Positions 1 through 11,852 of a stretch of 11,852 nucleotides of DNA are shown in pieces (position 1 is the first letter of the stretch; every line of letters begins with the position of its first letter). The stretch spans positions 1-11,852 of the forward strand of contig JAEOUH010000076.1 in assembly GCA_016839365.1 (NCBI GenBank). Direction: 5' to 3'. The notes beneath the pieces were generated by a model. It did no database searches, was not told the DNA's origin, and saw only the letters and a program-made list of their open reading frames with translations. This DNA is from Candidatus Hermodarchaeota archaeon (GTDB lineage Archaea > Asgardarchaeota > Hermodarchaeia > Hermodarchaeales > Hermodarchaeaceae). The translations under genes and the position numbers were made by a program.

Positions 1-2
1 CC

Positions 3-116
3 CCACCTCCCCGTAGCACCAGCCGCGGCGGTTTCCGCGGCGGAGGCGGCGTCAGCTGCGCCTGCGCTTGCGCCTGCGCATCTTGTGCGTGTGCTTGTGC
101 AGGAGGAGGACGTTAA
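3..116 (+). CDS. C-terminal fragment of a protein ending in a Gly-rich and Cys-Ala repeat tail (5'-truncated by the window edge)
   Basis: Frame 3 reads PPPRSTSRGGFRGGGGVSCACACACASCACACAGGGR* with TAA at 114-116. The Cys and Ala codons vary synonymously (tgc/tgt; gcc/gct/gca/gcg), so this is a protein-level repeat rather than a DNA microsatellite. From recall, similar CACACAGGGR tails end some DUF2207-like membrane proteins; this cannot be verified here. Confidence 0.8.
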   Translation, partial: PPPRSTSRGGFRGGGGVSCACACACASCACACAGGGR

Positions 117-139: not shown

Positions 140-1744
140 CTATTTCCCCTTCGGGTACTTTTTCAAAATATAGTGAATACGCCGTCTGTCGTAGGAAATA
201 CCGAACTTGTCAAAAACCTGTTCCGCGATTATGCCCTTTGATAATCCATGGGCATCTAGTCGTTGGACTTCATTGATGACATTCTGCGGAATGAATTCAG
301 GGTTAGTTTCTCTTCTTGCTTGTATCATCTTTGCTAATTTTTCTGCTGTTTTTTGCCTTTCATTGGCATGTAAAAAGTAGGGAAGTTTGACAGCCCTCAG
401 GACACTTCTTTGGCGTTTTATCTTAATTCGTTTTCCGTCATCGATTGATATAATCCCAAGACTTCGAAGAAGCTCTTTAACCAAAGCAATGTTAGGTTCA
501 CAAGCATTTCCAAGGGCTTGATCCTTCGTGCTTGCCCATCCATCCCCATCGTTGAGTCCTTGAATGAACTTTATGCGAATTTTAATTGGTGCTTTGATTA
601 ACCAATCTGCTTTAATCGGATCGTAAGTAGTACGCTGATTTCGTCGAAGTCCTAAACAAGTTTGGTCAATCCAAGTGAGAAGTGGTGTGTTTTCTGAGTT
701 CCAAGAATAGCAGGTATTTAAACCAGTGAAGGAATCTCGATCGCCAACTTGTTTGGCGAGTATACCGATTTTACCTAGGTAATAGCAGGTAGCCACACCA
801 ACTTGTCGACTCCAAGTGTAGCTTTTCGAAAGACGAAGATCAATACGATGGGCAGTTCGTGAGATGCTGGATTTCCCGCAGTCACTGACAATGATGCCGA
901 GAAGATAGGCGAAGGCTTCATCTTGGGTGATTGGTTCAAATTGTTTGTGCCAGTGTTCCATTTGTGGTGTATCGAGAGGGTGTGTTTGCTGGATGACTTG
1001 TTGGACTTCTGCCCATGTTTCTACGGTTGTGGGCACGTGAATGAAGGTGGTGGGGTGGAAGTTGCCTTCCATGGTGAGGGGGAGCCATTGGTGGTCGGGT
1101 TCAGGGGGTTGTTGGGGGATGCGGCGTGTGAGTTCGAGGTAGTCAGGGCGGCTTCCGTTGAGCCAGCGCATGATTTGGGAGTGGTGGATGTTGAGGGTGC
1201 GGGCGATGTCGAGGTTGGTACCGCCGTCTGTGAGGAGGGTGAGGGCGTGGAAGTATTGGGTGCAGTGGGTGAGGCGTTTGTGGTGGTGTTTGGATGCGGT
1301 GAGTTCTGGAGTGGGATAGTAGGTGGCGAGTCGGGCTAGGATGTCGTTGGTGGATGTGACGCCGTTATTCTCTTTATGAAGTTGTGTGATGATTTTGTTT
1401 GCTTGGGTTTTGGAGAGGATGCGGTCGAGTTCGTAGTAGAGGCGGGGTTTGCGGGCGTCTTGGGCCCAAGCGGTGAATTTCTGGCGAGATATTCCGAGTT
1501 CGTTTCCTAAGCGTTTGCGGTCGCCGCGTTCGAGGTGGGTTTTACCTTTGAGGAGTTGGATGAAGGTGAGGTGTAGTTCAGCTTCTCGTATGAGTTGTGG
1601 ATATTGGGGATTGCGTTTAAGCCCTGGATATTCGGTGTTGAGAATGTGGTGGAGGTGGGGGATGGTGGTGATGGGGGTGTCACCGATGTGGGGGTGCCAG
1701 AAGTTGATGGGGGCGTGGTCACGGGGTGTAGGTGGTTGGGGCAT
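140..1744 (-). CDS. Free-standing LAGLIDADG endonuclease-domain protein with multiple helix-turn-helix motifs (534 aa)
   Basis: Two LAGLIDADG-like helices: AYLLGIIVSDCG (D288) and FIQGLNDGDG (D401), followed by the typical LVKELLRSLGI block. HTH-like segments are RKRLGNELGISRQKFTAW, NLDIARTLNIHHSQIMRWLNG and the C-terminal GLSKGIIAEQVFDKFGISYDRRRIHYIL. A GTGAGG RBS-like motif lies upstream of the ATG. No intein splicing motifs are present. Confidence 0.85.
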   Translation of the reverse strand: MPQPPTPRDHAPINFWHPHIGDTPITTIPHLHHILNTEYPGLKRNPQYPQLIREAELHLTFIQLLKGKTHLERGDRKRLGNELGISRQKFTAWAQDARKPRLYYELDRILSKTQANKIITQLHKENNGVTSTNDILARLATYYPTPELTASKHHHKRLTHCTQYFHALTLLTDGGTNLDIARTLNIHHSQIMRWLNGSRPDYLELTRRIPQQPPEPDHQWLPLTMEGNFHPTTFIHVPTTVETWAEVQQVIQQTHPLDTPQMEHWHKQFEPITQDEAFAYLLGIIVSDCGKSSISRTAHRIDLRLSKSYTWSRQVGVATCYYLGKIGILAKQVGDRDSFTGLNTCYSWNSENTPLLTWIDQTCLGLRRNQRTTYDPIKADWLIKAPIKIRIKFIQGLNDGDGWASTKDQALGNACEPNIALVKELLRSLGIISIDDGKRIKIKRQRSVLRAVKLPYFLHANERQKTAEKLAKMIQARRETNPEFIPQNVINEVQRLDAHGLSKGIIAEQVFDKFGISYDRRRIHYILKKYPKGK

Positions 1745-1766
1745 GGTGGGGGCGCCTCACAGATGT
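1637..1766 (-). repeat. Dispersed repeat A, copy 1: RBS plus first ~36 codons of the LAGLIDADG gene
   Basis: Matches 11376-11509 in the same orientation. The core 1650-1727 vs 11389-11466 is 70/78 identical by manual alignment, with identical tggttggggcatggtgg and gcgcctcacagatgt blocks. Confidence 0.95.
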
Positions 1767-1790
1767 TGGTGGAGATTGGGTTTTGAACTC

Positions 1791-1840
1791 CACACTTTCT
1801 GGCGGGGTGCGGGATTTGGTTGATTTTTATGCGTTCTGGT
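1791..1840 (-). promoter_or_regulatory. Dispersed repeat B, copy 1: probable BRE/TATA promoter and transcription start region of the LAGLIDADG gene
   Basis: The minus strand reads accagaacgcATAAAAAT...(~22 nt)...gaaagtgtg and ends 47 nt before the ATG. It is 40/50 identical to 5258-5306. The promoter role is inferred from the spacing. Confidence 0.65.
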
Positions 1841-2037
1841 GGATAATTTTGGGTGTTGCAGGCAAAGCTTCAGCTGCGTCAATAAAGCGCAATATGCCCC
1901 CAACTTTCGCCGTATTGGTGAATTTAGTATCTCTTTCACTTGAAGACGGGATGGAACTACTTAGGTATGAAATATTAATAGAACGTCCACATCAAATACA
2001 TCCAAACCTTGGTCGACACAAGGATGGGCGTAGACGT

Positions 2038-4677
2038 ATGCTACGAACCTCGAAGAAACACTTCGTCCAATTCGTGATGATATGCATCCTTTTCTCATGG
2101 TGGGGTGCCACAATCCCCCGCTATACGCCAAATACTCCAGTCAACAATCTCTCCCCTCAGCACCCCATCATTTCCCAGGCGTTTTTGCAGAACTTTTTGA
2201 GTTTCGAGCGACCTTTACCCCACTCCCGTATGGCTCACTGGGATTATCACATTCTAAGAGACCGACAAAGCTCAGATCAAAGGTTCAGCCCATTCACCAG
2301 TTCTACCACTGATCTTTCCCAGACAAGAACCTGGTACACACGAACCCCCGCAACAGCCTACAGAAACCCTGTCATCCCCCCCTATCCACTGACCCTTCAT
2401 CGTCCTATCATCATTGAATCAGATGCTGAGTTTGCCAGCCAAGGATGGCCGGGGAATGGCACTCAAGAAAATCCATACACTATTTCAAATTTGAACATAA
2501 CAGCAACATTGGGGGAATCTTGCATCTTGATTGAAAATACTCGCGTTCATTTCGTTATCACAAATTGCTGGATGCATGACCAAGGCACTGGCGATGGGGT
2601 CTTGTTAGCTAATGTAACCAATGGGCTCATTGCCAACACGACATGGATTAACCTTTATTTTGGAATTACGCTCAGGTCCTCAGAGTCCATTGAGATATTC
2701 AATAACACCTTGATTGGTTCTTGGAGGGGAATCGAGGTAGTTGATGCAACTACCACGAAGATAGTCAACAACACCTGCTCCAACTCATTTTTAGGAATTG
2801 GCGCCTTCAATTCATCCTCCACAGAAATTGTCAATAACACTTTGAAAGACTGCGAATTCTTTGGATGTGAGATTTACCCTGTCAATGATAATATCATCGC
2901 CAATAATTCACTTACAAACTGTGGCTTCTTTTTCGGCGTCTGGGAAGACAGGCTGTCTCCTCTTCCATTAGTCGGAGTGGGGAGCCTTAATAATGTAGAA
3001 TCTCAGATAATCGGAAATCTCGTCAATAATCGGCCATTGATCTTTTGGCAAAGGCGAAGTGGAGGAACCGTTCCTCTGGATGTCGGTCAAATCATACTTC
3101 TTGAGTGTAATGGTGTCACTATTCAAGATCAGTATATCACCAACACCTCAATTGGCATATTCGTTGGTTTCTCTACTCATACCCAGATCGTTAATAGCAT
3201 TTGTTCACACCACACTGTGTATGGCATTTGCATTCACAATTCCACCGATATTACTGTAAACTACAACTTGTGTAGGAATAACTTCTTAGTTGGAATCTCT
3301 TTTTACCATTCACGCAACTCTGTTGTGACAAACAACACCTGCAAGCATAATGGTGTAGGTATTGACCTCCTTGAATCTAATACCAACCAGCTCCTTAACA
3401 ATACCTGTAACTCTAATCAGGAAAGAAGCTGGGCTGGGGGGGAAGGATGGGGTCACTGGTTCGGGGGAGAAGGCATTTCGATTTTTGGGGAGTCAAACGT
3501 TGTTAAGTGGAATCACTGCAATGATAATACAGGTTCTGGAATCTTTATTAGCGGTCATAATAATAGCGTTTTGGAAAATACTTGTACTAACAATGGGGTT
3601 GGCATTAGCTTTCGAATTTACCCCAATAATATTATTATTGGCAACTGCTTGATCGGTTGCGGTTTTGACTTCGAAATGCCAGATGGGGAGGTAGAGTGGC
3701 AAGATGTCGAGATTAGTGGGAATACGGTGAACGGACGTCCACTGATTTTCTGGCATGCACGAGTTAATGAGAGAGTTCCATCGGGAGCCGGGCAAATCAT
3801 CCTTTTTAATTGCAGGAACATCATAGTGGAGAGACAAAACCTCACTAATTGTCCGAACGCCCTCCTCATCAGAAACACCGACCATTCCCTCTTTGCGAAT
3901 AACCTTCTAAGTGATATAGCAGGAGATGGGATTTCTATTGCTGATTCCTTTTATAATCACTTCACAGGAAATATTATCTCGGATTGTTCGCGCGGGCTCA
4001 ACTTGGTTGACGCTTCCTACTCCTATTTCACGAACAACATCTTAAGCAACATAACACAAGAAGGAATTTGCATTATTGGGGCTGGCTCCAATCATTTCTC
4101 AGAAAATATTCTCACTAACTGTTCAGTTGGATTCTTTGTATCGGGGTCTGTCCACTGCCTTTTCAGGTATAACATTCTTTATGACAATACACACGAAGGA
4201 ATTTCATTTCTTCGATCTCACTACAATCACATCTTGGGAAATTTGCTATCAAATAATGGTTGCAACATTTGGTTTCATTCGGATTCCCAGAACAACACCG
4301 TAGAATGGAACACCTTCATTGGCAACCAAAGCACCAACGCAAATGATGATTGTAACTACTACTTACGCCCATGGGCGAACATTTTTGATCGCAATTTTTG
4401 GTCCGATTATACCGGCGTTGATGCCAATCTCGATGGCTATGGGGATACAGCCTACAATATTGCAGGAGATGCTTCTAACCGTGATCTTCACCCTATAAAG
4501 AGCCCCATAAACTTACTGGCAATTCGTTTGACACAGCGGATATTATTATTCCTTGAGAGAGTCACTATTCTACTCTTTGTGATTGTCGTAGTTATCTTGG
4601 TTTTAGCTAGATTAAGACGCGGTGCTCCCAAATCTTCTGAGGTGAGTGGGGTTAACCGGAATTCCATGAGGAGGTGA
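2038..4677 (+). CDS. Membrane-anchored right-handed parallel beta-helix (NosD/CASH/PbH1-repeat) surface protein, ~879 aa
   Basis: Signal-like N-terminus (MLRTSKKHFVQFVMICILFSWWG), the PIIIESDAEF..WPGNGTQENPYTI motif, many N-N-x..GI repeats, a NosD-type end (NFWSDYTGVDANLDGYGDTAYNI) and a C-terminal TM helix followed by RLRR. The start is moved from 1732 because the extension overlaps the divergent gene's start and promoter; ATG 1951 is an alternative. Confidence 0.85.
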   Translation: MLRTSKKHFVQFVMICILFSWWGATIPRYTPNTPVNNLSPQHPIISQAFLQNFLSFERPLPHSRMAHWDYHILRDRQSSDQRFSPFTSSTTDLSQTRTWYTRTPATAYRNPVIPPYPLTLHRPIIIESDAEFASQGWPGNGTQENPYTISNLNITATLGESCILIENTRVHFVITNCWMHDQGTGDGVLLANVTNGLIANTTWINLYFGITLRSSESIEIFNNTLIGSWRGIEVVDATTTKIVNNTCSNSFLGIGAFNSSSTEIVNNTLKDCEFFGCEIYPVNDNIIANNSLTNCGFFFGVWEDRLSPLPLVGVGSLNNVESQIIGNLVNNRPLIFWQRRSGGTVPLDVGQIILLECNGVTIQDQYITNTSIGIFVGFSTHTQIVNSICSHHTVYGICIHNSTDITVNYNLCRNNFLVGISFYHSRNSVVTNNTCKHNGVGIDLLESNTNQLLNNTCNSNQERSWAGGEGWGHWFGGEGISIFGESNVVKWNHCNDNTGSGIFISGHNNSVLENTCTNNGVGISFRIYPNNIIIGNCLIGCGFDFEMPDGEVEWQDVEISGNTVNGRPLIFWHARVNERVPSGAGQIILFNCRNIIVERQNLTNCPNALLIRNTDHSLFANNLLSDIAGDGISIADSFYNHFTGNIISDCSRGLNLVDASYSYFTNNILSNITQEGICIIGAGSNHFSENILTNCSVGFFVSGSVHCLFRYNILYDNTHEGISFLRSHYNHILGNLLSNNGCNIWFHSDSQNNTVEWNTFIGNQSTNANDDCNYYLRPWANIFDRNFWSDYTGVDANLDGYGDTAYNIAGDASNRDLHPIKSPINLLAIRLTQRILLFLERVTILLFVIVVVILVLARLRRGAPKSSEVSGVNRNSMRR

Positions 4678-4681
4678 ATTT

Positions 4682-5176
4682 TTGACTGATCTTCGTGACA
4701 AATTGATAGCACTAGATCGGGAGGGTTTAGAACAGGAGGCTGCACGGCTCGGGATTAGTGTCACTGAGTCAATGAGCCGGGCTGAGCTAATTATTGCGAT
4801 TGAGACCGTGAATGCCCATCATGAATTGGGTGCCATTCAATCCTTCCGGGAATATCGTGTCCTCATTTCTGGTCTCATCTTGGTAACCATAGCCACAATT
4901 GTATGGGCCTTTGACACGTATTTACTACTAGCAGGCCTCCATGTCATATTTTTTGATGTTGTATCATCACTGATCCCTTCATTGATTTACTGGGTGCTCC
5001 GCGCCCTAGGAGGCTGCTTGATTGCAGCGGCGCTAATTTCTCTTGCGTTCAAAAAGGGTGACGAGAGAATGACTCCGGTTGTTAGAGGTGCCCTAATTAC
5101 TGTGACTGTACTTATCATCATTATCGTGATTATCTCTATACCTTTTCCAGGTAATTGGTTAACGATGTATCCCTGA
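4682..5176 (+). CDS. 3-TM membrane protein with an N-terminal Rho_N/HeH-like helix-extension-helix domain (164 aa)
   Basis: TTG start preceded by a strong GGAGGTGA RBS (4670-4677) that overlaps the upstream stop. The N-terminal LIALDREGLEQEAARLGISVTESMSRAELIIAIE resembles the Rho N-terminal domain pattern. Three hydrophobic segments follow. Confidence 0.8.
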   Translation: MTDLRDKLIALDREGLEQEAARLGISVTESMSRAELIIAIETVNAHHELGAIQSFREYRVLISGLILVTIATIVWAFDTYLLLAGLHVIFFDVVSSLIPSLIYWVLRALGGCLIAAALISLAFKKGDERMTPVVRGALITVTVLIIIIVIISIPFPGNWLTMYP

Positions 5177-5217
5177 CGAATCATCACAACAACTGAATTG
5201 TATATGAGGTAAACAAC

Positions 5218-5337
5218 ATGACTGACAAAGGGGCGTCTTCAAGGCACAATGTGTATGCACACTTTCAGGGGGGCGCGGGGTTCGCCTCGTTTATATGCGT
5301 TCTGGTCAACATTGTAGGGCTGGCTGGGGTTGGTTAG
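5218..5337 (+). CDS. Possible small ORF (39 aa) or 5' remnant of an interrupted gene
   Basis: TGAGGT RBS 7 nt before ATG 5218. It reads MTDKGASSRHNVYAHFQGGAGFASFICVLVNIVGLAGVG* and overlaps repeat B copy 2. Confidence 0.35.
   Translation: MTDKGASSRHNVYAHFQGGAGFASFICVLVNIVGLAGVG
5258..5306 (-). repeat. Dispersed repeat B, copy 2: orphan copy of the LAGLIDADG gene's promoter-like block
   Basis: cacactttcaggggggcgcggggttcgcctcgtttatatgcgttctggt vs cacactttctggcggggtgcgggatttggttgatttttatgcgttctggt at 1791-1840: 40/50 identical, with exact 9-nt and 13-nt ends. Confidence 0.85.
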
Positions 5338-5512
5338 TGCGCTTGTGCCCGCAGTTATCGGAAAAAGTCGTGGCTAAAATGATTGCATTCACGTTAATCC
5401 AAAGATTGTTCGATGTTTTATGGGGTTCATTGGTTTTTGTCGTATTTGTTGGCATGCATGGTGTGCTATCTTTTTAACCGGTGATTGCTCACCCCGCGGT
5501 GAGGTCATTATT

Positions 5513-6025
5513 ATGGCCGAAATGAATATACCTGGATGGTTTCGCTGGATCTTAATGCTGTTTGGACTAGTTATTATCATTCTTGCTGCAGCGCTGTTTG
5601 TACTGCTGATTGAATACTATCTGTTCATTGTCATCGTCGTGATATTCATCTTAATTGGGTTCTTGTCGATTATCCGCGTTTTCATAAAGTTTCGAGGCTG
5701 GCTTCGGTTCCTAAAATTAATTCTTAATATCATCATCATCATTCTGGCAATCGTTGTCTACATGTTCTATGGGGTCTATCCGATAGAATGGCTCTTTTGG
5801 ATGCTGAGTGTGGGTCTGATACTCGATGGTCTGGACTGGCTTCTCGTAATGTTTGTGGCTGGCCCCGAAGGAGTATACAAATGGTTAGGACTCCTCTTCG
5901 GTCTCATTGAACTAGTGCTCGCGGCGGTTGTCTTCGTGATGATTGCTTACGCATGGTGGCTTCTAGCTGGCGCTGTAATTCTCAGTGGATTGAATCTGTT
6001 GATTAACGGTTTTATTGCAAAATAG
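5513..6025 (+). CDS. DUF308/HdeD-like multi-pass membrane protein (170 aa, ~6 TM)
   Basis: Very hydrophobic, with duplicated helical-hairpin patterns (WILMLFGLVIIILA / WLGLLFGLIELVLA). ATG 5513 is chosen for the GGTGAGG RBS at 5498-5504 and TTTTTAA at 5471-5477. The family assignment is by pattern only. Confidence 0.75.
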   Translation: MAEMNIPGWFRWILMLFGLVIIILAAALFVLLIEYYLFIVIVVIFILIGFLSIIRVFIKFRGWLRFLKLILNIIIIILAIVVYMFYGVYPIEWLFWMLSVGLILDGLDWLLVMFVAGPEGVYKWLGLLFGLIELVLAAVVFVMIAYAWWLLAGAVILSGLNLLINGFIAK

Positions 6026-6027
6026 AC

Positions 6028-6067
6028 TTGTGACATTCACTGTTGAGTGTCACAATTTCTTTTTTTT
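6028..6067 (+). terminator. Hairpin plus oligo-T terminator
   Basis: 12-bp stem ttgtgacattca / tgagtgtcacaa (one G-U pair) with a 4-nt loop, followed by tttctttttttt. It begins 2 nt after the stop at 6025. Confidence 0.85.
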
Positions 6068-6182
6068 CGCCCATCGAGAAGTTCGTCCAACACCTTCAAT
6101 TCATCGCAGTCATCATCTTCTCTCTACAGTTGCGGAAGGTGGTCACTGACAGCCTTGTGCTGCAATAGTTGAATTCGAACGA

Positions 6183-7748
6183 CTATTTGTCAAATCTTGG
6201 TGTTGGGTGTCGAAGGATGACTTGGGTTTGTAGAGTGGTAAACTCTAATGGACTTAGAAGCGGTCCGAGGTGGTGGATGTTTATCCATATTATGGCGTTG
6301 GGAGGGCATGTTATGGAAATGGTGGTGTCTGTGGTTGTGCTTGGCGGGGTCCAGTCGCCATATTGCTGGAGTCCTGCGCTTGACAATATTCGAGTCGAAA
6401 TTATAAAGGTGCCCGCTGGGGCATTATGGAGGGTGATATGGGTGGTTGTTGAACGGGATCCATGGTTAGCGATGAGAATCGTGTAATTGTGTTGGCCCGG
6501 TCCTTGCGTTGCCAGGACGCTGGGGGGAACCGGCATGGGGAACAGGGTAGGTGAAGGAACCAGGGTAGAGTTCACTATGGATTGCCCCATGATTGCGGCA
6601 AAGGGTTTCAGAGCATGAAATGTGGGTTTAGGGGTTGTAGGGTTACGCGTGAGTAAACCAAAGTTAGCTTCGTCACCAAAAATCGTGGTAACGCTGGGAT
6701 GAATCGGGACATCTTTGGCAAAGCCGAAACAGGCGACGTCAATGCCGTGGTGTGCGGCACTCACTAACACATGGGTAATGTGCAGGGCTGCGGTCATCGT
6801 ACCCCATTCGGTATCCGAGAGGAGGTCAAGCCCGTATTCATCGAACACCCGGTCAATGTGTCCAAAGCCATGGTTCGTCAGCAAAGTAGTTCCGGTTTCA
6901 ATGACTCCGACAACTTGTGCGGGTTGATTCCAATACGCATGCCAGGAGAAAAAGTCTAGAGGAAGTCCCAAGCCATTGACATGTCCTAAGAAGCTCGTGG
7001 TCCAATCACTAAAGTTGATGTCCGCAAGTCCTGGGCCACCAATTTTGAATGAACCCCCTATTGTTTTCAAGCGTTGCGATACGGTAGAATATAATTGAAG
7101 AAATTCTTGTTTAGAACCATTCCAAAAGGCTGGCAGATTGGGTTCGTTTCCAATTTCGATGTAATCAAAATTGAAAATTTGTCCTGACATTCCTGGCCAT
7201 CCTAGCTCGTAATGCATCACTACATGGGCGACCACTTCTGCATAAATTGTAAAGTTATCAGGTGGGCTGTTTGGTGCCCAGTTGGTTGCTAGGGACCTTG
7301 GACACCCCAGAAACGTCAAGATGGGTTGGGCTCCACTGTTATTGACCACTTCAACGAGTAGATTGAGATAGGTCCAGTTATAGAAATTGGGGTTTTGTGC
7401 ATCCGTAAAGGTTGAACCATTGAAGATGGTGTGGTACCATCCCCATCCGGAACTGGCGGCTAACTGCCATCCGAATCGACACCAGACGCGGAGCCGCTGC
7501 AGACCGAGGTTGCGGAACAGCTCATAGGCGACAGTATCTTGATACAATCCTGTTACATCTGGTCCATAGGAATTCACACCCGCAAGCTGGTTTACTGTGC
7601 CAGTTACCTGGCTGGTTTCAACTTGTAGCTCGAATTCAACCGGCGGAAGAATTACGAAGGTTAACACCAGCCATACACCTAGACTCAGTATAAGGAACAC
7701 TGTCACAATAGCGATTACCAATCGTCGCCGCACGGTCAACGCTTCCAT
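6183..7748 (-). CDS. Membrane-anchored clan GH-A glycoside hydrolase, GH39 (beta-xylosidase/alpha-L-iduronidase)-like
   Basis: N-terminal RRR plus a TM helix; YNWTYLN, YIEIGNEPN (acid/base Glu), KIGGPG, LDFFSWHAY, VFDEYG (nucleophile Glu) and NFGLL..TPKPTF. The start could also be 7790 or 7820. Confidence 0.85.
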   Translation of the reverse strand: MEALTVRRRLVIAIVTVFLILSLGVWLVLTFVILPPVEFELQVETSQVTGTVNQLAGVNSYGPDVTGLYQDTVAYELFRNLGLQRLRVWCRFGWQLAASSGWGWYHTIFNGSTFTDAQNPNFYNWTYLNLLVEVVNNSGAQPILTFLGCPRSLATNWAPNSPPDNFTIYAEVVAHVVMHYELGWPGMSGQIFNFDYIEIGNEPNLPAFWNGSKQEFLQLYSTVSQRLKTIGGSFKIGGPGLADINFSDWTTSFLGHVNGLGLPLDFFSWHAYWNQPAQVVGVIETGTTLLTNHGFGHIDRVFDEYGLDLLSDTEWGTMTAALHITHVLVSAAHHGIDVACFGFAKDVPIHPSVTTIFGDEANFGLLTRNPTTPKPTFHALKPFAAIMGQSIVNSTLVPSPTLFPMPVPPSVLATQGPGQHNYTILIANHGSRSTTTHITLHNAPAGTFIISTRILSSAGLQQYGDWTPPSTTTDTTISITCPPNAIIWINIHHLGPLLSPLEFTTLQTQVILRHPTPRFDK

Positions 7749-7900
7749 TTCTCGGTCTAGCCATCGTCTTGTATTTAGCTTAACCTGCATTCTGCTATGT
7801 ACTTGATTAGGCTGCCTCAAAGAATTGGTGTTGTGAGGATTCTTCTTGTTGTTGGGCGATGTATGATAAGAATCCTTGAGTACCCTTACTTTGAGGGTGA

Positions 7901-7925
7901 TTTAGTAATATTTATGACGTTTCTG
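7901..7925. promoter_or_regulatory. Probable divergent BRE/TATA promoter region between the GH39-like gene and the ABC operon
   Basis: AT-rich tttagtaatatttatg. The minus strand reads cagaaacgtcATAAATAT, similar to cagaacgcATAAAAAT upstream of the LAGLIDADG gene. Confidence 0.5.
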
Positions 7926-7965
7926 CGATAAGTAGGGGGGAACCTAATGGTTCGTACAACTGGAG

Positions 7966-8775
7966 ATGTATGATTTGAATGGTAGAGGAATTGCTGCCAT
8001 AGCTTTGATTATCGGTATAGTGGTTGGTTTCAGTATAGGTTGGTTTGCACCTGCCTTACTTCCCCCGGCTCCAGCACCGAGTCTGGTTGCTCAGATTCAA
8101 GCACGGGGTTCACTCTATGTGGGAACAAGTTCTGATTGGCCCCCCTTTGAGATTTACAACACGACGACAGATCAGTATGAAGGCTTTGATATCGATCTCT
8201 GTGAAATGATTGCTGCCCACCTCGGTGTTACAGTGACGTGGTTCGACATGGACTTTGACGCCTTACCTGCGGCTTGCATAGCTGGCACAATTGATATGAT
8301 TGCGGCAGCCATGTTTGTCACACCCGAACGCGCGGAACAGCTTGCCCACTCAGTCCCGTATATCAGAACCAATCAAGTAGTAGTTGTTAAGGGGAACTCA
8401 ACCCTCACAATTACTGACTTAGAGGATTTGGAAGGTTATACTGTTGGAGTTCAATCAGGTACGGTTGAAGACTTAGACCTAACCGATTTGGTAGACGCAG
8501 GTGTTGGCATAAATCTTGTTCGGTATGCTAGAGCCGACATCATGTTAGCTGACCTAGAGGCGGGAGGTCTCGATGCAACCTACGTGGATGAGCCGGTCTT
8601 TACAGTCTATTCAGGAATCTACTTCCTTAAAACGATTTATACTTACCCCGCACCACCTACCGCCCTATTCTGCCGTTGGGAGAATCCGGATTTATTGCAG
8701 GAGATAAACATTGTAATCTTAAATGCATTTGCAGACGGAACAATGGACGCCCTAATCGCACAATGGTTTGGGTGA
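7966..8775 (+). CDS. Polar amino acid ABC transporter substrate-binding protein (SBP_bac_3), N-terminally anchored
   Basis: LYVGTSSDWPPFE, YEGFDIDL, TPERAEQ..SVPY and VGVQSGT motifs, plus an N-terminal TM. TTG 7975 is a possible alternative start. Confidence 0.95.
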   Translation: MYDLNGRGIAAIALIIGIVVGFSIGWFAPALLPPAPAPSLVAQIQARGSLYVGTSSDWPPFEIYNTTTDQYEGFDIDLCEMIAAHLGVTVTWFDMDFDALPAACIAGTIDMIAAAMFVTPERAEQLAHSVPYIRTNQVVVVKGNSTLTITDLEDLEGYTVGVQSGTVEDLDLTDLVDAGVGINLVRYARADIMLADLEAGGLDATYVDEPVFTVYSGIYFLKTIYTYPAPPTALFCRWENPDLLQEINIVILNAFADGTMDALIAQWFG

Positions 8776-8778
8776 TAC

Positions 8779-9462
8779 ATGTTGCAAGCGCCGGATCTCC
8801 CCTCCATCTTTTTTTACATTATTTTCCACGGATTACCAATCACGTTAATTCTTACAGCACACGGTCTGATTTGGGGATTTTTAATTGGTCTTTTATTAGC
8901 GCTGATGCGGGTTTATGGTACTCGAGAAATCGAATGGGTTGCAATTGCTTATGAGAAAGTGTTTCGTGGCATTCCTTTGCTGGTGTTAATTTTTCTTTTT
9001 GCATTTGGTGTTCCTGGTCTCTTTTGGTTTATCGACCCGCTGTACAGAACTCTGGCAGCGGTTATTCTTTCGTTGGCGCTTCGAAGTGGGGCATACCAAT
9101 CCCAGATTCTTCGAGGAGCTATCCTCTCCGTTAATCCGGGACAGCAGTTGGCTGCGAGGGCTTTGGGGATGAGTCGACTACAAGCGTTTCGATACGTGGT
9201 TATGCCCCAAGCTCTTCGAATGGCCCTTCCGAGCTGGTCAAATGAGTATGCTGTCGTCATTAAGGATACAACGTTCGCGTCCGCTGTTGGAATAATTGAA
9301 ATGCTTCGGGTTACATTTCGCGTTGTGGCGAATAACCCCGAGATGTTGTTTCCCCCGCTTGTGATTCTCGCCATAATCTATCTCATATTTACTTATCCTA
9401 TTACGAGATTCTTTGGAGAGCGCCAAACTCAGAAACTCAAAGACTTAGGGTTAGGAGGCTAA
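8779..9462 (+). CDS. Polar amino acid ABC transporter permease (GlnP/HisM family)
   Basis: FRGIPLLV, AYQSQILRGAILSVNPGQQLAARALGMS (EAA loop), MPQALR and IKDTTFAS motifs. Confidence 0.95.
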   Translation: MLQAPDLPSIFFYIIFHGLPITLILTAHGLIWGFLIGLLLALMRVYGTREIEWVAIAYEKVFRGIPLLVLIFLFAFGVPGLFWFIDPLYRTLAAVILSLALRSGAYQSQILRGAILSVNPGQQLAARALGMSRLQAFRYVVMPQALRMALPSWSNEYAVVIKDTTFASAVGIIEMLRVTFRVVANNPEMLFPPLVILAIIYLIFTYPITRFFGERQTQKLKDLGLGG

Positions 9463-9467
9463 GAGAA

Positions 9468-10262
9468 GTGGAAAAACCGTTACTTCAAGTAAAGAACATT
9501 TGGAAGGCTTATGATGAACTCCAAGTTCTCAAGGGCGTCTCTTTTGATGTGGAAGAAGGTGAAGTTAAGGTAATTTTTGGTCCCAGTGGGTCAGGGAAAA
9601 GCACCCTCCTCCGCTGCATCAATATGTTGACTCCTCCAGACAAAGGAACAGTAATCCTTCAGGGTACAAATCTCATGGATTCTGACACTAATCTGAATAT
9701 GATCCGATCAAAGATTGGGATGGTTTTCCAACATTTCAACCTTTTTTTGCACCTAAAAGCAATAGACAATGTTAGCCTTGGTCCGCGACGTGTCCTTGGC
9801 TTGTCTAAAGATGAGGCAACGGAAAGGGCACTTGATGCATTAATTCAAGTGAAGATGGAGAAGTGGGCAGACCATTATCCTGCCCAATTGTCAGGTGGAC
9901 AACAACAACGAGTGGGAATCGCTCGGGCTTTGGTTATGAATCCCGTATTGATTTTGTTTGATGAACCCACATCTGCGCTAGATCCCGAACTAATTGGTGA
10001 AGTGCTACAAGTGATGCTTGACATCGCTAAATCGGGTACAACGATGGTTGTAGTTACTCATGAAATGGGCTTTGCCCGAGCCGTTGCAACTGAGATGATT
10101 TTCATCGATGAGGGTGTTATTGTTGAAAAAGGAACCCCAAGGCACTTTGCGATCTCGCCTGAAACGGAGAGAGCAAAGCAGTTCCTGCACCGGCTTGAAG
10201 TTCTTTACGGTCATCACGAGGAGCTTCTTGAACCTGAAGATAAGGAGGAAGGTAATTCGTGA
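9468..10262 (+). CDS. glnQ: Polar amino acid ABC transporter ATP-binding protein (GlnQ family)
   Basis: Walker [19 protein letters not shown], signature LSGGQQQRV, Walker [14 protein letters not shown] and VTHEMGFA. Confidence 0.95.
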
Positions 10263-11023
10263 TTCAAGTCCTTCCTCGATGGCTTGAAGACCTCCTCACT
10301 GTCTTATCGTATAGTGATGAACTCATCGCTGGTTTGTCTACGACACTTTCACTGTATTTCACCGCATTAATCATGGGGTTCTTTCTTGGTTTAGGATTCG
10401 CTATTGGCCGGCAATATGGAGGGATAATAACTTCGAGAATCTCTACTGCCTACATTGAATTAATCCGTGGTACTCCATTGCTTGTTCAACTTTTTCTGTT
10501 CTACTTCTTTCCCTATAGCTTAAGTGCGACCCTTGAGCTTCTTGGTCTTCTTCCCCTCCCTTTAGATTGGAGTATACAAATAATTGGTCCGGGGGGCCAG
10601 GTGATTACCATTCTGAATCATCGGATTCTTACCTGCTATTTGATGTTAGGGCTTAACAGTACAGCATATCAGGCTGAGTACCTTCGTGGTGCAATCGCTT
10701 CTGTGAGTGCTGAACAATTATTAGCCGCACAATCACTGGGCCTTTCACGAGCAGGGGGTATCCGCTCCATTGTGTTACCGCAATCCCTGCGTCGAGTTAT
10801 ACCTTCTTGGTCCAACGAAGCTGCATATCTACCAAAATACACCGTTGTTGCCTACTTCATTGGAGTAGAAGATCTCTTTGCTGCAGCACACTTTATTGTT
10901 GCCCGTACCTTTCTAACGTTAACCACCTATCTGCTTGTTGCCCTGATATATCTCGTATTAGTTACTGTAATCTCTAGGATATTAGACTACGTCCATGATC
11001 GAACTAAAATTCCTGGACTTTAG
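10259..11023 (+). CDS. Polar amino acid ABC transporter permease (second subunit)
   Basis: YIELIRGTPLLVQLF, AYQAEYLRGAIASV..Q..AAQSLGLS and LPQSLR motifs. GTGA start/stop overlap with the ATPase gene. Confidence 0.95.
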   Translation: MIQVLPRWLEDLLTVLSYSDELIAGLSTTLSLYFTALIMGFFLGLGFAIGRQYGGIITSRISTAYIELIRGTPLLVQLFLFYFFPYSLSATLELLGLLPLPLDWSIQIIGPGGQVITILNHRILTCYLMLGLNSTAYQAEYLRGAIASVSAEQLLAAQSLGLSRAGGIRSIVLPQSLRRVIPSWSNEAAYLPKYTVVAYFIGVEDLFAAAHFIVARTFLTLTTYLLVALIYLVLVTVISRILDYVHDRTKIPGL

Positions 11024-11348
11024 AATGCCTATTGTTTAGAAGTGTACTGGCTTCCTTTTGATAGGATGGGACTTGTTAATCGGGGTTTACGGTGGTCCAA
11101 TTTTTTGTTTGCATTAGACATATGTTATGTGTGGTCTTTCTTTGGTGTGATGGAGCGTGTTCCTCGGGTGGTAGCGCCGTAGACTGCATCCTATGATCCT
11201 GTGGAATTGGCGGAGGTGACGCAGGAGATTGTGTGTCGTCGTGAAGATTGTGCTCGAAAATACACAGATGTGTATGTGGCGGGAGTGTATGGGGGGATTG
11301 CGACGGCGTATGCTGTGGGATGCCCGTTAATCTGTTTGGGTGCCGTAG

Positions 11349-11486
11349 CTATTTAGTGGTGTGGCGGTTGAGGAAGTCGAGGATGGTGTGGAGGTGGGGG
11401 ATGGAGGTGATGGGAGTGTTGCCGATGTGGGGGATCCAGAGGTTAATGGGGGCGTGGTCACGGGGTTTCTGGGATGGTTGGGGCAT
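11349..11486 (-). pseudogene. Truncated paralog (45 aa) of the N-terminus of the HTH-LAGLIDADG protein; remnant or functional mini-protein
   Basis: MPQPSQKPRDHAPINLWIPHIGNTPITSIPHLHTILDFLNRHTTK* vs MPQPPT-PRDHAPINFWHPHIGDTPITTIPHLHHILN. It has the same catctgtgaggcgc RBS region, and homology ends after ~codon 37. Confidence 0.8.
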
Positions 11487-11509
11487 GGTGGTGTGCGCCT
11501 CACAGATGT
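11376..11509 (-). repeat. Dispersed repeat A, copy 2
   Basis: Direct repeat of 1637-1766; see copy 1. Confidence 0.95.
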
Positions 11510-11529
11510 GTGCGGATTTGGGTGTTAGG

Positions 11530-11543
11530 AGAACGCGTTTTAA
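11530..11543. promoter_or_regulatory. Candidate bidirectional promoter between the mini-ORF and the nucleoside hydrolase gene
   Basis: agaacgcgttttaa contains the AGAACGC motif of repeat B (here facing right), the palindrome aacgcgtt and a TTTTAA box. Confidence 0.4.
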
Positions 11544-11586
11544 GTTGGTGTGAATATAGGGTTGGTTGTTGGTGGTGAGTGGGTTG

Positions 11587-11852
11587 GTGAAGTGGTCTTG
11601 GTTGATCTTGGTCTTATTGGTAGGGGTGTTGTTCGTTGGCCAGGTGCCGGTGGGTGGGCGTGGCATGGCGCCGCCGGGGGTGGTGTCGGTGATTGTGGAT
11701 ATGGATGTGGATCCGTCGGATACTTGTGCACTCTTGTATTTGTTGAAGCATCCGGGGGTTGTGGTGCGGGCGATTACGGTGTCGTGTGGGATTACTTACA
11801 TTGATGAGGGGGTGGCGAATGTGTTGCGGTTGTTGGAGTATCTGGGGATTCG
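11587..11852 (+). CDS. Nucleoside hydrolase family (IU-NH-like) protein with a signal peptide, 3'-truncated by the window edge
   Basis: Frame 1 is open from 11560 to the end: MKWSWLILVLLVGVLFVGQVPVGGRGMAPPGVVSVIVDMDVDPSDTCALLYLLKHPGVVVRAITVSCGITYIDEGVANVLRLLEYLGI. This matches the NH N-terminal pattern (IIDxDxxxDD, ALxxxL..P, ITxxxG, NxLRLLExLG). A GGTGAG RBS lies upstream of GTG 11587. Confidence 0.85.
   Translation, partial: MKWSWLILVLLVGVLFVGQVPVGGRGMAPPGVVSVIVDMDVDPSDTCALLYLLKHPGVVVRAITVSCGITYIDEGVANVLRLLEYLGI

Follow-up and report, generated by a model that had tools for sequence, protein, structure and literature searches.

How did three traces of one gene come to lie on the same strand of a short archaeal contig? 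We addressed this for an 11,852-nt stretch of DNA, the window, which is the entire contig C56 (JAEOUH010000076.1) of a Candidatus Hermodarchaeota metagenome-assembled genome (MAG) of 2.2 Mb, 93 contigs and 84% completeness, here called G000. G002 to G017 denote the related genomes compared, C with a number is a contig and L with a number a locus extract. The gene in question codes for a protein with helix-turn-helix (HTH) domains around a LAGLIDADG core and is present once intact and twice in part. The original prediction had offered two readings, a multi-copy free-standing element that inserts between genes and leaves 5' footprints, or a regulator with dispersed cognate sites. We propose, with a probability of about 0.6, that the gene is one of a family of free-standing, LAGLIDADG homing-endonuclease-like genes that is lineage-restricted, mobile over evolutionary time and decaying here, and that the partial copies are scars of rearrangements.

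One intact gene and two partial copies

The three minus-strand traces proved real: the open reading frame (ORF) is intact, and two pairs of repeats were recovered both by a repeat search and by BLAST against the genome. The traces, and the gene fragments that adjoin them, are as follows.

140 to 1744, minus strand: intact, free-standing HTH-HTH-LAGLIDADGx2-HTH gene, coding for P0001 (534 amino acids, aa)
1745 to 1842, minus strand: its leader and block B, with a Shine-Dalgarno (SD)-like GAGG and a TATA-like CATAAAAAT at about 1823-1831
5218 to 5259, plus strand: 5' stump (14 codons) of the gene for an ABC-transporter ATPase, of which G005:C73 and G004:C96 have an intact version downstream of their orf164 orthologue
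5258 to 5319, minus strand: B', the putative LAGLIDADG promoter/leader from -98 to -47, tail to tail with the ATPase stump, with no ORF after it
11084 to 11353, plus strand: truncated radical-SAM gene, 5' third only, to about codon 96 at the CxxxCxxC motif
11349 to 11385, minus strand: tail of an alpha/beta-hydrolase gene (about 11 last codons and stop), now the end of a 45-codon chimeric ORF
11386 to 11526, minus strand: L', gene positions -38 to +98, with SD, ATG at 11486 and about 35 codons, and no B block upstream

The right-hand repeat pairs 1637-1727 with 11376-11466 (87% over 91 nt) and, when extended, 1637-1784 with 11376-11526 (83% over 152 nt; BLAST E 3e-35 against the whole 2.2-Mb genome). 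For the left-hand one, 1791-1840 matches 5258-5306 at 80% (E 1e-4 genome-wide), and 1804-1853 and 5270-5319 are 72% identical.

P0001 is a predicted LAGLIDADG nuclease

P0001 carries two homeodomain-like HTHs, a double-motif LAGLIDADG core and then a C-terminal HTH. Both LAGLIDADG motifs are kept across an alignment of 21 homologues (38-77% identical), in which S287-D288 (..VSD) and Q395-G396-x-x-D399-G400-D401-G402 (..DGDG) are invariant, D288 and D401 being the catalytic aspartates. In an AlphaFold (AF2) model (predicted local distance difference test, pLDDT, 91; predicted template-modelling score, pTM, 0.81) residues ~270-480 are predicted to form a pseudo-dimeric alpha-beta-beta-alpha-beta-beta-alpha core with the two LAGLIDADG helices packed centrally. 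Structure comparison of this core gave Z scores of 16.1 with PI-SceI, 16.0 with PI-PfuI and 12.5 with I-DmoI (Foldseek template-modelling score 0.6-0.69 for the latter), and the core also superposed on the TliVMA intein endonuclease, WhiA, E-DreI and I-Tsp061I (all Z 12-16). Residues 480-534 make up a Myb/homeodomain-like three-helix HTH. Folded alone, the N-terminal 265 residues (pLDDT 88) yielded two homeodomain-like three-helix units and a beta-hairpin module; no overall fold match was obtained for them (best Z 4.3, Foldseek E no better than 0.85), and we do not claim a new fold.

Sequence profiles gave low scores. The Pfam LAGLIDADG_3 model matched P0001 at 20 bits, below the cut-off of 22.5, and passed its threshold in relatives; the HTH_23 match to P0001 was likewise below threshold. 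NCBIfam matches reached 15-17 bits and covered the HTH part of IS3/IS630 models only (cut-offs 100-160), and a search of solved structures with the family profile returned chance ferritin matches only. We regard P0001 as a predicted nuclease of the LAGLIDADG superfamily with fold and catalytic aspartates kept, which presumably cleaves DNA.

No intron or intein host was found in the window. The gene interrupts no ORF and no RNA gene and is therefore of the free-standing kind, with a stop and apparently a promoter and SD of its own, a convergent stop codon on one side and a divergent gene on the other. There is no inverted repeat around 140-1744 and no DDE domain.

The partial copies are joined to stumps of other genes

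L' tracks the LAGLIDADG gene to about codon 35 and then passes into the end of an alpha/beta-hydrolase gene. The hydrolase is intact in G008 (Pfam Abhydrolase_1) with the same terminal residues (..HTILDFL.RHT.K); no orthologue was found elsewhere in G000. The switch falls inside a ~35-nt stretch of chance likeness between both genes. What had been described as a ribosome-binding site plus ~37 codons thus exists as a fragment, but it spans -38 to +98 and its frame after codon ~35 comes from another gene. The radical-SAM gene, truncated here, is intact as a paralogue on C64 of G000 and as orthologues in six relatives. Homology to the upstream region of the G008 nucleoside hydrolase gene sets in on the other side, at ~11516-11520, so that L' abuts this conserved region and lacks a B promoter of its own. 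Hydrolase tail, cut radical-SAM gene and L' together make 11084-11526 a patchwork of short gene fragments, such as error-prone break repair may have left. An exact 41-nt pattern across the L'/hydrolase junction had no match in a metagenome contig collection. L' is nearest to the intact gene's own 5' end (84%, as against 69% to G005), and the duplication is therefore internal to the lineage and old, comparable to between-species divergence.

The history of B' is of a similar kind. The window shares its gene order with G005:C73 and G004:C96 through orf164 and as far as 14 codons into the ABC ATPase gene, where it changes to the reverse strand of the LAGLIDADG leader, from -47 back to -98. After B' there is only an 11-codon frame, the antisense of the ATPase stump. 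Contrary to the prediction that the partial copies sit between unrelated genes, each abuts a truncated gene fragment, and we read both as illegitimate-recombination junctions and not as 5' footprints of insertion, as 3' remnants and internal deletions occur in the family too (see below).

B' (-98 to -47) and L' (-38 to +98) represent complementary, non-overlapping 5' parts with a gap of ~9 nt; they lie 6 kb apart, in the reverse of their natural order. This complementarity could be coincidence, or the two could be two sides of one leader break.

Related genomes show filled and empty sites

The comparison of orthologous loci that the original prediction called for bore out a multi-copy, free-standing, intergenic family, for its occupancy differs among relatives. 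The Fae-Hps/c20 spacer, which runs from a Fae-Hps fusion gene to a conserved 99-aa gene and measures ~150 nt, has no insertion in at least 13 genomes from two genera, G000 (C15) among them. In G014 it holds 2.5 kb with a minus-strand LAGLIDADG gene and a 151-aa ORF, and in G003 only the last ~200 nt of the G014 insertion (74% protein-level identity). The G005 spacer holds a plus-strand, internally deleted copy that is most closely related to the G017 copy, which sits on the opposite side of Fae-Hps. As lineages and orientations differ between G014 and G005, two lineages entered the same ~70-nt spacer, oppositely oriented.

A second site lies at tRNA-Thr-ED. Apart from 1.77 kb that G000 lacks, G000:C7 has the same gene order as G012:C51 and G010:C12. 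This unit consists of the gene together with ~124 nt of upstream sequence, at whose very edge lies a B-like promoter, and ~45 nt of downstream sequence; its start is only a few bases away from the stop codon of tRNA-Thr-ED. A third site carries a cassette in G004 and G005 and a 255-aa Nudix-like ORF in G000 (G000:C60:12798-13761). Presence and absence at otherwise conserved sites between relatives is what characterizes a mobile homing endonuclease gene.

The family is restricted in distribution, often broken and fast evolving

With P0001 as query, matches were found in 13 of 18 other genomes of the same family, with up to 10 per genome and 26-70% identity. A profile search that sampled 27 families of the phylum detected the gene family in three of them, in 12/18, 22/43 and 1/4 genomes, and found none in ~135 genomes of the other 24. 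Among 1.84 billion cluster representatives, 424 clusters at 50% identity matched (E <= 1e-3). Automatic annotation already labels some members "LAGLIDADG family homing endonuclease"; a full-text literature search found no paper describing this family. In long members (P0043, P0080 and P0078; 1,270-1,543 aa) the LAGLIDADG core is preceded by two or three incomplete repeats of the N-terminal HTH module. Long members occur mainly in a second Asgard family (f6). Homologues carry the source labels Candidatus Hodarchaeota archaeon and Promethearchaeota archaeon, and genes nearby in relatives code for Arf/Ras-like GTPases, Yip1 and the archaeal tRNA-Thr-ED domain; G000 is accordingly an Asgard archaeon.

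Several matches in relatives are broken by in-frame stops, frameshifts or internal deletions, or consist of one end only. Beside the nucleoside hydrolase gene G011 has block B plus 13 codons, and G005 has a separate 3' fragment. Remnants are not 5'-specific, given the 3' remnant in G003 and both the internal deletion and the 3' fragment in G005. Loci of the family lie within 1.2 kb of a contig end in 21 of 28 cases; in eight less fragmented genomes, 11 of 17 loci are near a contig end, a zone that makes up 6-14% of the sequence (rough binomial ~4e-7, with kin not independent).

In a maximum-likelihood tree the copies group by genomic location, with clades next to DUF2207 (G000, G005, G010, G002, G003, G012), an Arf-like GTPase gene (G007, G002, G011) and tRNA-Thr-ED (G010, G012), and a fifth lineage in G004 and G005. 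Most copies are hence vertically inherited. They evolve several times faster than their neighbours, with branch lengths of 0.17-0.39 per site while Fae-Hps is 94-95% identical. The ratio of non-synonymous to synonymous divergence (dN/dS) between orthologues is ~0.15-0.35, with dS near saturation, and the genes are thus under purifying selection. In the DUF2207-adjacent clade synonymous divergence of the N-terminal half is about half that of the C-terminal half.

The G004 and G005 copies of one lineage (L080:1181-2812 and L082:329-1823, both minus strand) are nearly identical (branches 0.02-0.03), and both tblastn matches contain an in-frame TAA; the pair may represent a shared pseudogene or a recent transfer. 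Separately, two paralogues of a catalytically dead side branch (L044:268-1506, plus strand; L083:845-2098, minus strand) are convergent to a live gene at a distance of 20-25 nt and lack the first ~125 residues.

Block B precedes the LAGLIDADG gene and an unrelated gene

Read in the orientation of the LAGLIDADG gene, block B is ACCAGAACGCATAAAAAT..AACCAAA..CCCGC.CCCC, with SD and ATG 50-100 nt downstream. Five relatives align with the window up to ~1840-1842, and homology of the orthologous locus ends at the upstream edge of block B, 1842. The block also occurs, 84-91% identical, ~50 nt before an unrelated gene of ~147 aa, orfK, in G014, G004, G012 and G007, and looser versions lie upstream of other genes in G000. 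From position and consensus, block B is best read as a putative archaeal promoter, with a transcription factor B recognition element (BRE) and TATA box, plus leader.

The orfK family comprises L057:1050-1490 (minus), L063:1556-1996 (plus), L062:1054-1488 (minus) and L068:567-1470 (minus). It is followed by a conserved 348-aa Cys-rich protein without Pfam match, which showed no relation to the LAGLIDADG family in profile comparison. On G012:C117 the DUF2207 gene is separated from the LAGLIDADG gene by two orfK paralogues. This suggests that orfK is functionally linked to the LAGLIDADG gene, as partner, inhibitor or co-regulated cargo; neither orfK nor the 348-aa protein was found in G000.

Neighbouring genes and history of the window

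In order, the window contains a DUF2207-like tail, the HTH-LAGLIDADG gene on the minus strand, a beta-helix/NosD-like gene, orf164, orf201, a GH39 gene on the minus strand, an ABC transporter and the start of a nucleoside hydrolase gene. The features outside the traces are:

1 to 113, plus strand: 3'-terminal part of the gene for a DUF2207-like membrane protein, which converges on the LAGLIDADG gene and is interrupted in its Pro-rich part by the contig break
1894 to 4677, plus strand: beta-helix/NosD-like protein gene
1894 to 11023, mixed strands: ordinary chromosomal genes between the traces (NosD-like, orf164, orf201, GH39 on the minus strand, four-gene amino-acid ABC transporter)
7966 to 11023, plus strand: four-gene amino-acid ABC transporter
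11644 to 11850, plus strand: 5' part of an inosine-uridine nucleoside hydrolase gene, cut at the contig end

No Pfam match was obtained for orf164, orf201, orfK, the c2 pair, c56 and u151, and Rfam and tRNA scans of the window were empty.

The tail at 1-113 is an 89% match to that of a 614-aa paralog on G000:C93, with a Cys-Ala repeat ending in GGGR, and a DUF2207-like gene adjoins the orthologous LAGLIDADG gene in G005, G010, G002, G003 and G012. DUF2207-like proteins (window 1-113; G000:C93:13505-13585; L068:1715-1966) share a poly-Pro stretch and a terminal Cys-Ala repeat tail (..CACACA..CACACAGGGR), and a contig break falls within this stretch in G000 and in G005. Strong strand skew (GC skew ~0.5) was seen at 1000-1850 and 11000-11852, which correspond to the gene's N-terminal half, its leader and the fragment patchwork. 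We rejected such skew as a special mark of the element: the whole G000 genome has 16 islands with |skew| >= 0.4, and one that was inspected (C93, 13001-13500) is the coding sequence of a DUF2207-like Pro-rich tail.

In G005 and in an ENA contig, the DUF2207 gene and the nucleoside hydrolase gene are connected through a single orthologous gene; a Ras-like fragment, Yip1 and one ORF intervene. In G012 the ABC operon follows the 5' end of the LAGLIDADG gene. Chromosomal operons that lie in different neighbourhoods in G014, G008 and G012 share 80-86% identity with the window's ABC operon. Nucleoside hydrolase, hydrolase, CysK, radical-SAM and ABC genes are arranged differently in G008, G014, G006, G010 and G000. 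We abandoned a single history for the block of nucleoside hydrolase, hydrolase, radical-SAM and ABC genes from five genomes as under-determined. The intact gene is itself a mosaic, its leader grouping with L', G012 and G002 and its body from ~+375 with G005 and a JGI copy.

A pair of overlapping ORFs (~160 and ~490 aa, with an HTH-like start and without a Pfam match) turns up at different places in the rearranged nucleoside hydrolase, radical-SAM and ABC region of four genomes (L038:6898-8831, plus; L044:3268-5252, minus; L040:6729-8665, minus; L039:11112-12854, plus). It may be another mobile or rearrangement-associated unit.

Weighing the explanations

We suggest that the family consists of self-contained cassettes of ~1.8 kb, each comprising a BRE/TATA-type promoter, a leader and an HTH-HTH-LAGLIDADG-HTH gene. 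The cassettes lie between genes, as a rule directly after the stop codon of a conserved gene that is convergent to them. A cassette would be gained at a site, inherited vertically for a while, evolve fast, decay and be lost. The protein would cut DNA, cutting would drive copying into empty sites, and breaks near cassettes may have promoted local rearrangements. B' and L' would then be what is left of at least one earlier copy, short 5' pieces that microhomology-mediated, illegitimate recombination has attached to the stumps of adjacent genes; the surrounding region has undergone repeated rearrangement within the genus.

Several points weigh against this proposal. G000 has one intact copy only, as a whole-genome search found no further copy of the gene or of its 37-residue N-terminus; the original prediction had counted such an outcome against a mobile family, a reading that is rescued by the relatives. 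Most copies are in conserved synteny across 2-6 species and group by locus in the tree, so movement must be rare, and the copies may have a host function. A catalytically dead paralogue (LAGLb branch; VSHSEK, FDGSGS; both acids lost) is kept beside the live gene in G010 and G003. The two sites inspected (Fae-Hps/c20 and tRNA-Thr-ED) showed neither a target-site duplication nor a terminal repeat, and they had no conserved target motif; the 1.77-kb difference at the latter could reflect gain or precise loss. Finally, the junctions are known from a single short-read MAG contig. A stronger version of the proposal, in which the cassettes are active self-propagating nuclease genes whose HTH arrays programme long targets and whose cuts both spread the gene and seed microhomology-joined rearrangements, is conceivable but rather unlikely.

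It seems improbable to us that the proteins are instead domesticated sequence-specific DNA-binding proteins, WhiA-like regulators or chromatin or segregation factors, with the dispersed B blocks as operators and the traces as a small regulon. The resemblance of LAGLIDADG core plus C-terminal HTH to WhiA (Z 13.9-15.6), the syntenic copies under purifying selection, the retention of dead paralogues and a block B common to an unrelated gene would all fit such a role. However, both catalytic aspartates are invariant in 21 diverse members, unlike in WhiA, pseudogenes and fragments are frequent, empty sites are clean and three genus members, albeit incomplete MAGs, have no copy. Nor are B' and L' placed before genes: they end at gene-stump junctions. 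The case for dispersed sites is weak also in that block B looks like a promoter/leader which stands before an unrelated gene too and whose architecture has parallels elsewhere in the genome. The partial copies might still be functional on their own, L' as a selected 45-aa mini-protein, for it retains SD, ATG and an open 45-codon frame, and B' as a live promoter from which an antisense or non-coding transcript would run into the upstream operon, for it retains the TATA-like core and the surroundings of the presumed start. We hold this to be very improbable: the last 11 codons of L' come from the hydrolase gene, its B promoter is lost, the mini-ORF occurs in no relative (the G011 remnant is independent and cut at codon 13), and B' is followed only by an 11-codon antisense frame of the gene stump, with no Rfam match.

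The repeats shared by the intact gene and L' could also stem from one integration, Campbell-type or homology-facilitated, in which a ~9.7-kb segment with a LAGLIDADG 5' end recombined with a resident gene beside the nucleoside hydrolase gene. The links to DUF2207 and nucleoside hydrolase, joined by one gene in G005 and the ENA contig and split between intact gene and L' in the window, would fit, as would the mosaic of leader and body and the illegitimate far junction. Yet the repeats are 16% diverged, which would make the event old, G012 likewise has the LAGLIDADG gene linked to the ABC operon, and the segment consists of ordinary chromosomal genes. L' is also not a G005-type resident end, its identity being 84% to the intact gene's 5' end and 69% to G005, and the homology-facilitated form with such an end was rejected on these values. 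We consider a single integration quite improbable, and for the suggestion that these repeats act as recombination ends we saw no evidence. That repeats or junctions are assembly artefacts of a strain-mixed metagenome is hardly credible. A short-read MAG contig as source, and a gene family found at contig ends in many assemblies, would invite that suspicion, but the copies are 13-28% diverged and hence not collapsed repeats, the junction microhomologies of ~10 nt are far below assembler k-mer sizes, and independent remnants of like kind occur in other assemblies.

Relation to known systems

The pseudo-dimeric core with two LAGLIDADG helices each ending in Asp, and the pattern of gain, decay and loss, are shared with the intron and intein enzymes I-DmoI, I-Tsp061I, PI-PfuI and PI-SceI; gain, decay and loss form the classical life cycle of homing endonucleases. 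Unlike these enzymes, the present family has no host intron or intein but what appears to be its own promoter and SD, ~265 extra N-terminal residues, an extra C-terminal HTH and several paralogous lineages per chromosome. Free-standing LAGLIDADG genes are known in organelles and, in domesticated form, as single genes. Among the latter, WhiA is likewise a free-standing chromosomal gene with a LAGLIDADG scaffold followed by a three-helix HTH (Z 15.6 for 8dy9_I, 13.9 for 3hyi). WhiA has lost its catalytic acids and is a single-copy, conserved bacterial gene, whereas the family described here keeps the acids except in its dead side branch and is multi-copy, patchy and often broken.

In its pattern of filled and empty sites the family resembles the free-standing homing endonuclease genes of phages and yeast HO. 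The T4 seg and mob genes, I-TevIII-like genes and HO are stand-alone nuclease genes with their own promoters and modular DNA-binding domains that lie between conserved genes and vary in presence. The phage genes are of the GIY-YIG or HNH type and reside in viral genomes, and HO is derived from an intein; here, in contrast, a LAGLIDADG enzyme with presumed homing activity is encoded in archaeal chromosomes. Likeness to insertion sequences of the IS630/Tc1-mariner and IS3 groups is confined to weak HTH_23/HTH_28/HTH_32-type matches and to superposition of the C-terminal HTH on those of Tc3, Mos1 and ISCth4 (Z ~6). There is no DDE domain, neither terminal inverted repeats nor target-site duplications were found at the two sites inspected, and sequence scores are far below cut-offs.

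What had appeared as a three-copy element or regulon in the window would thus resolve into one live gene and two repair scars. The family also flags a source of assembly breaks and of local loss of synteny in Asgard MAGs. It represents natural predicted nucleases with modular HTH arrays, in a short form of ~530 aa and a long form of up to ~1,540 aa, and candidate targets may be read directly from the empty sites in sister genomes.

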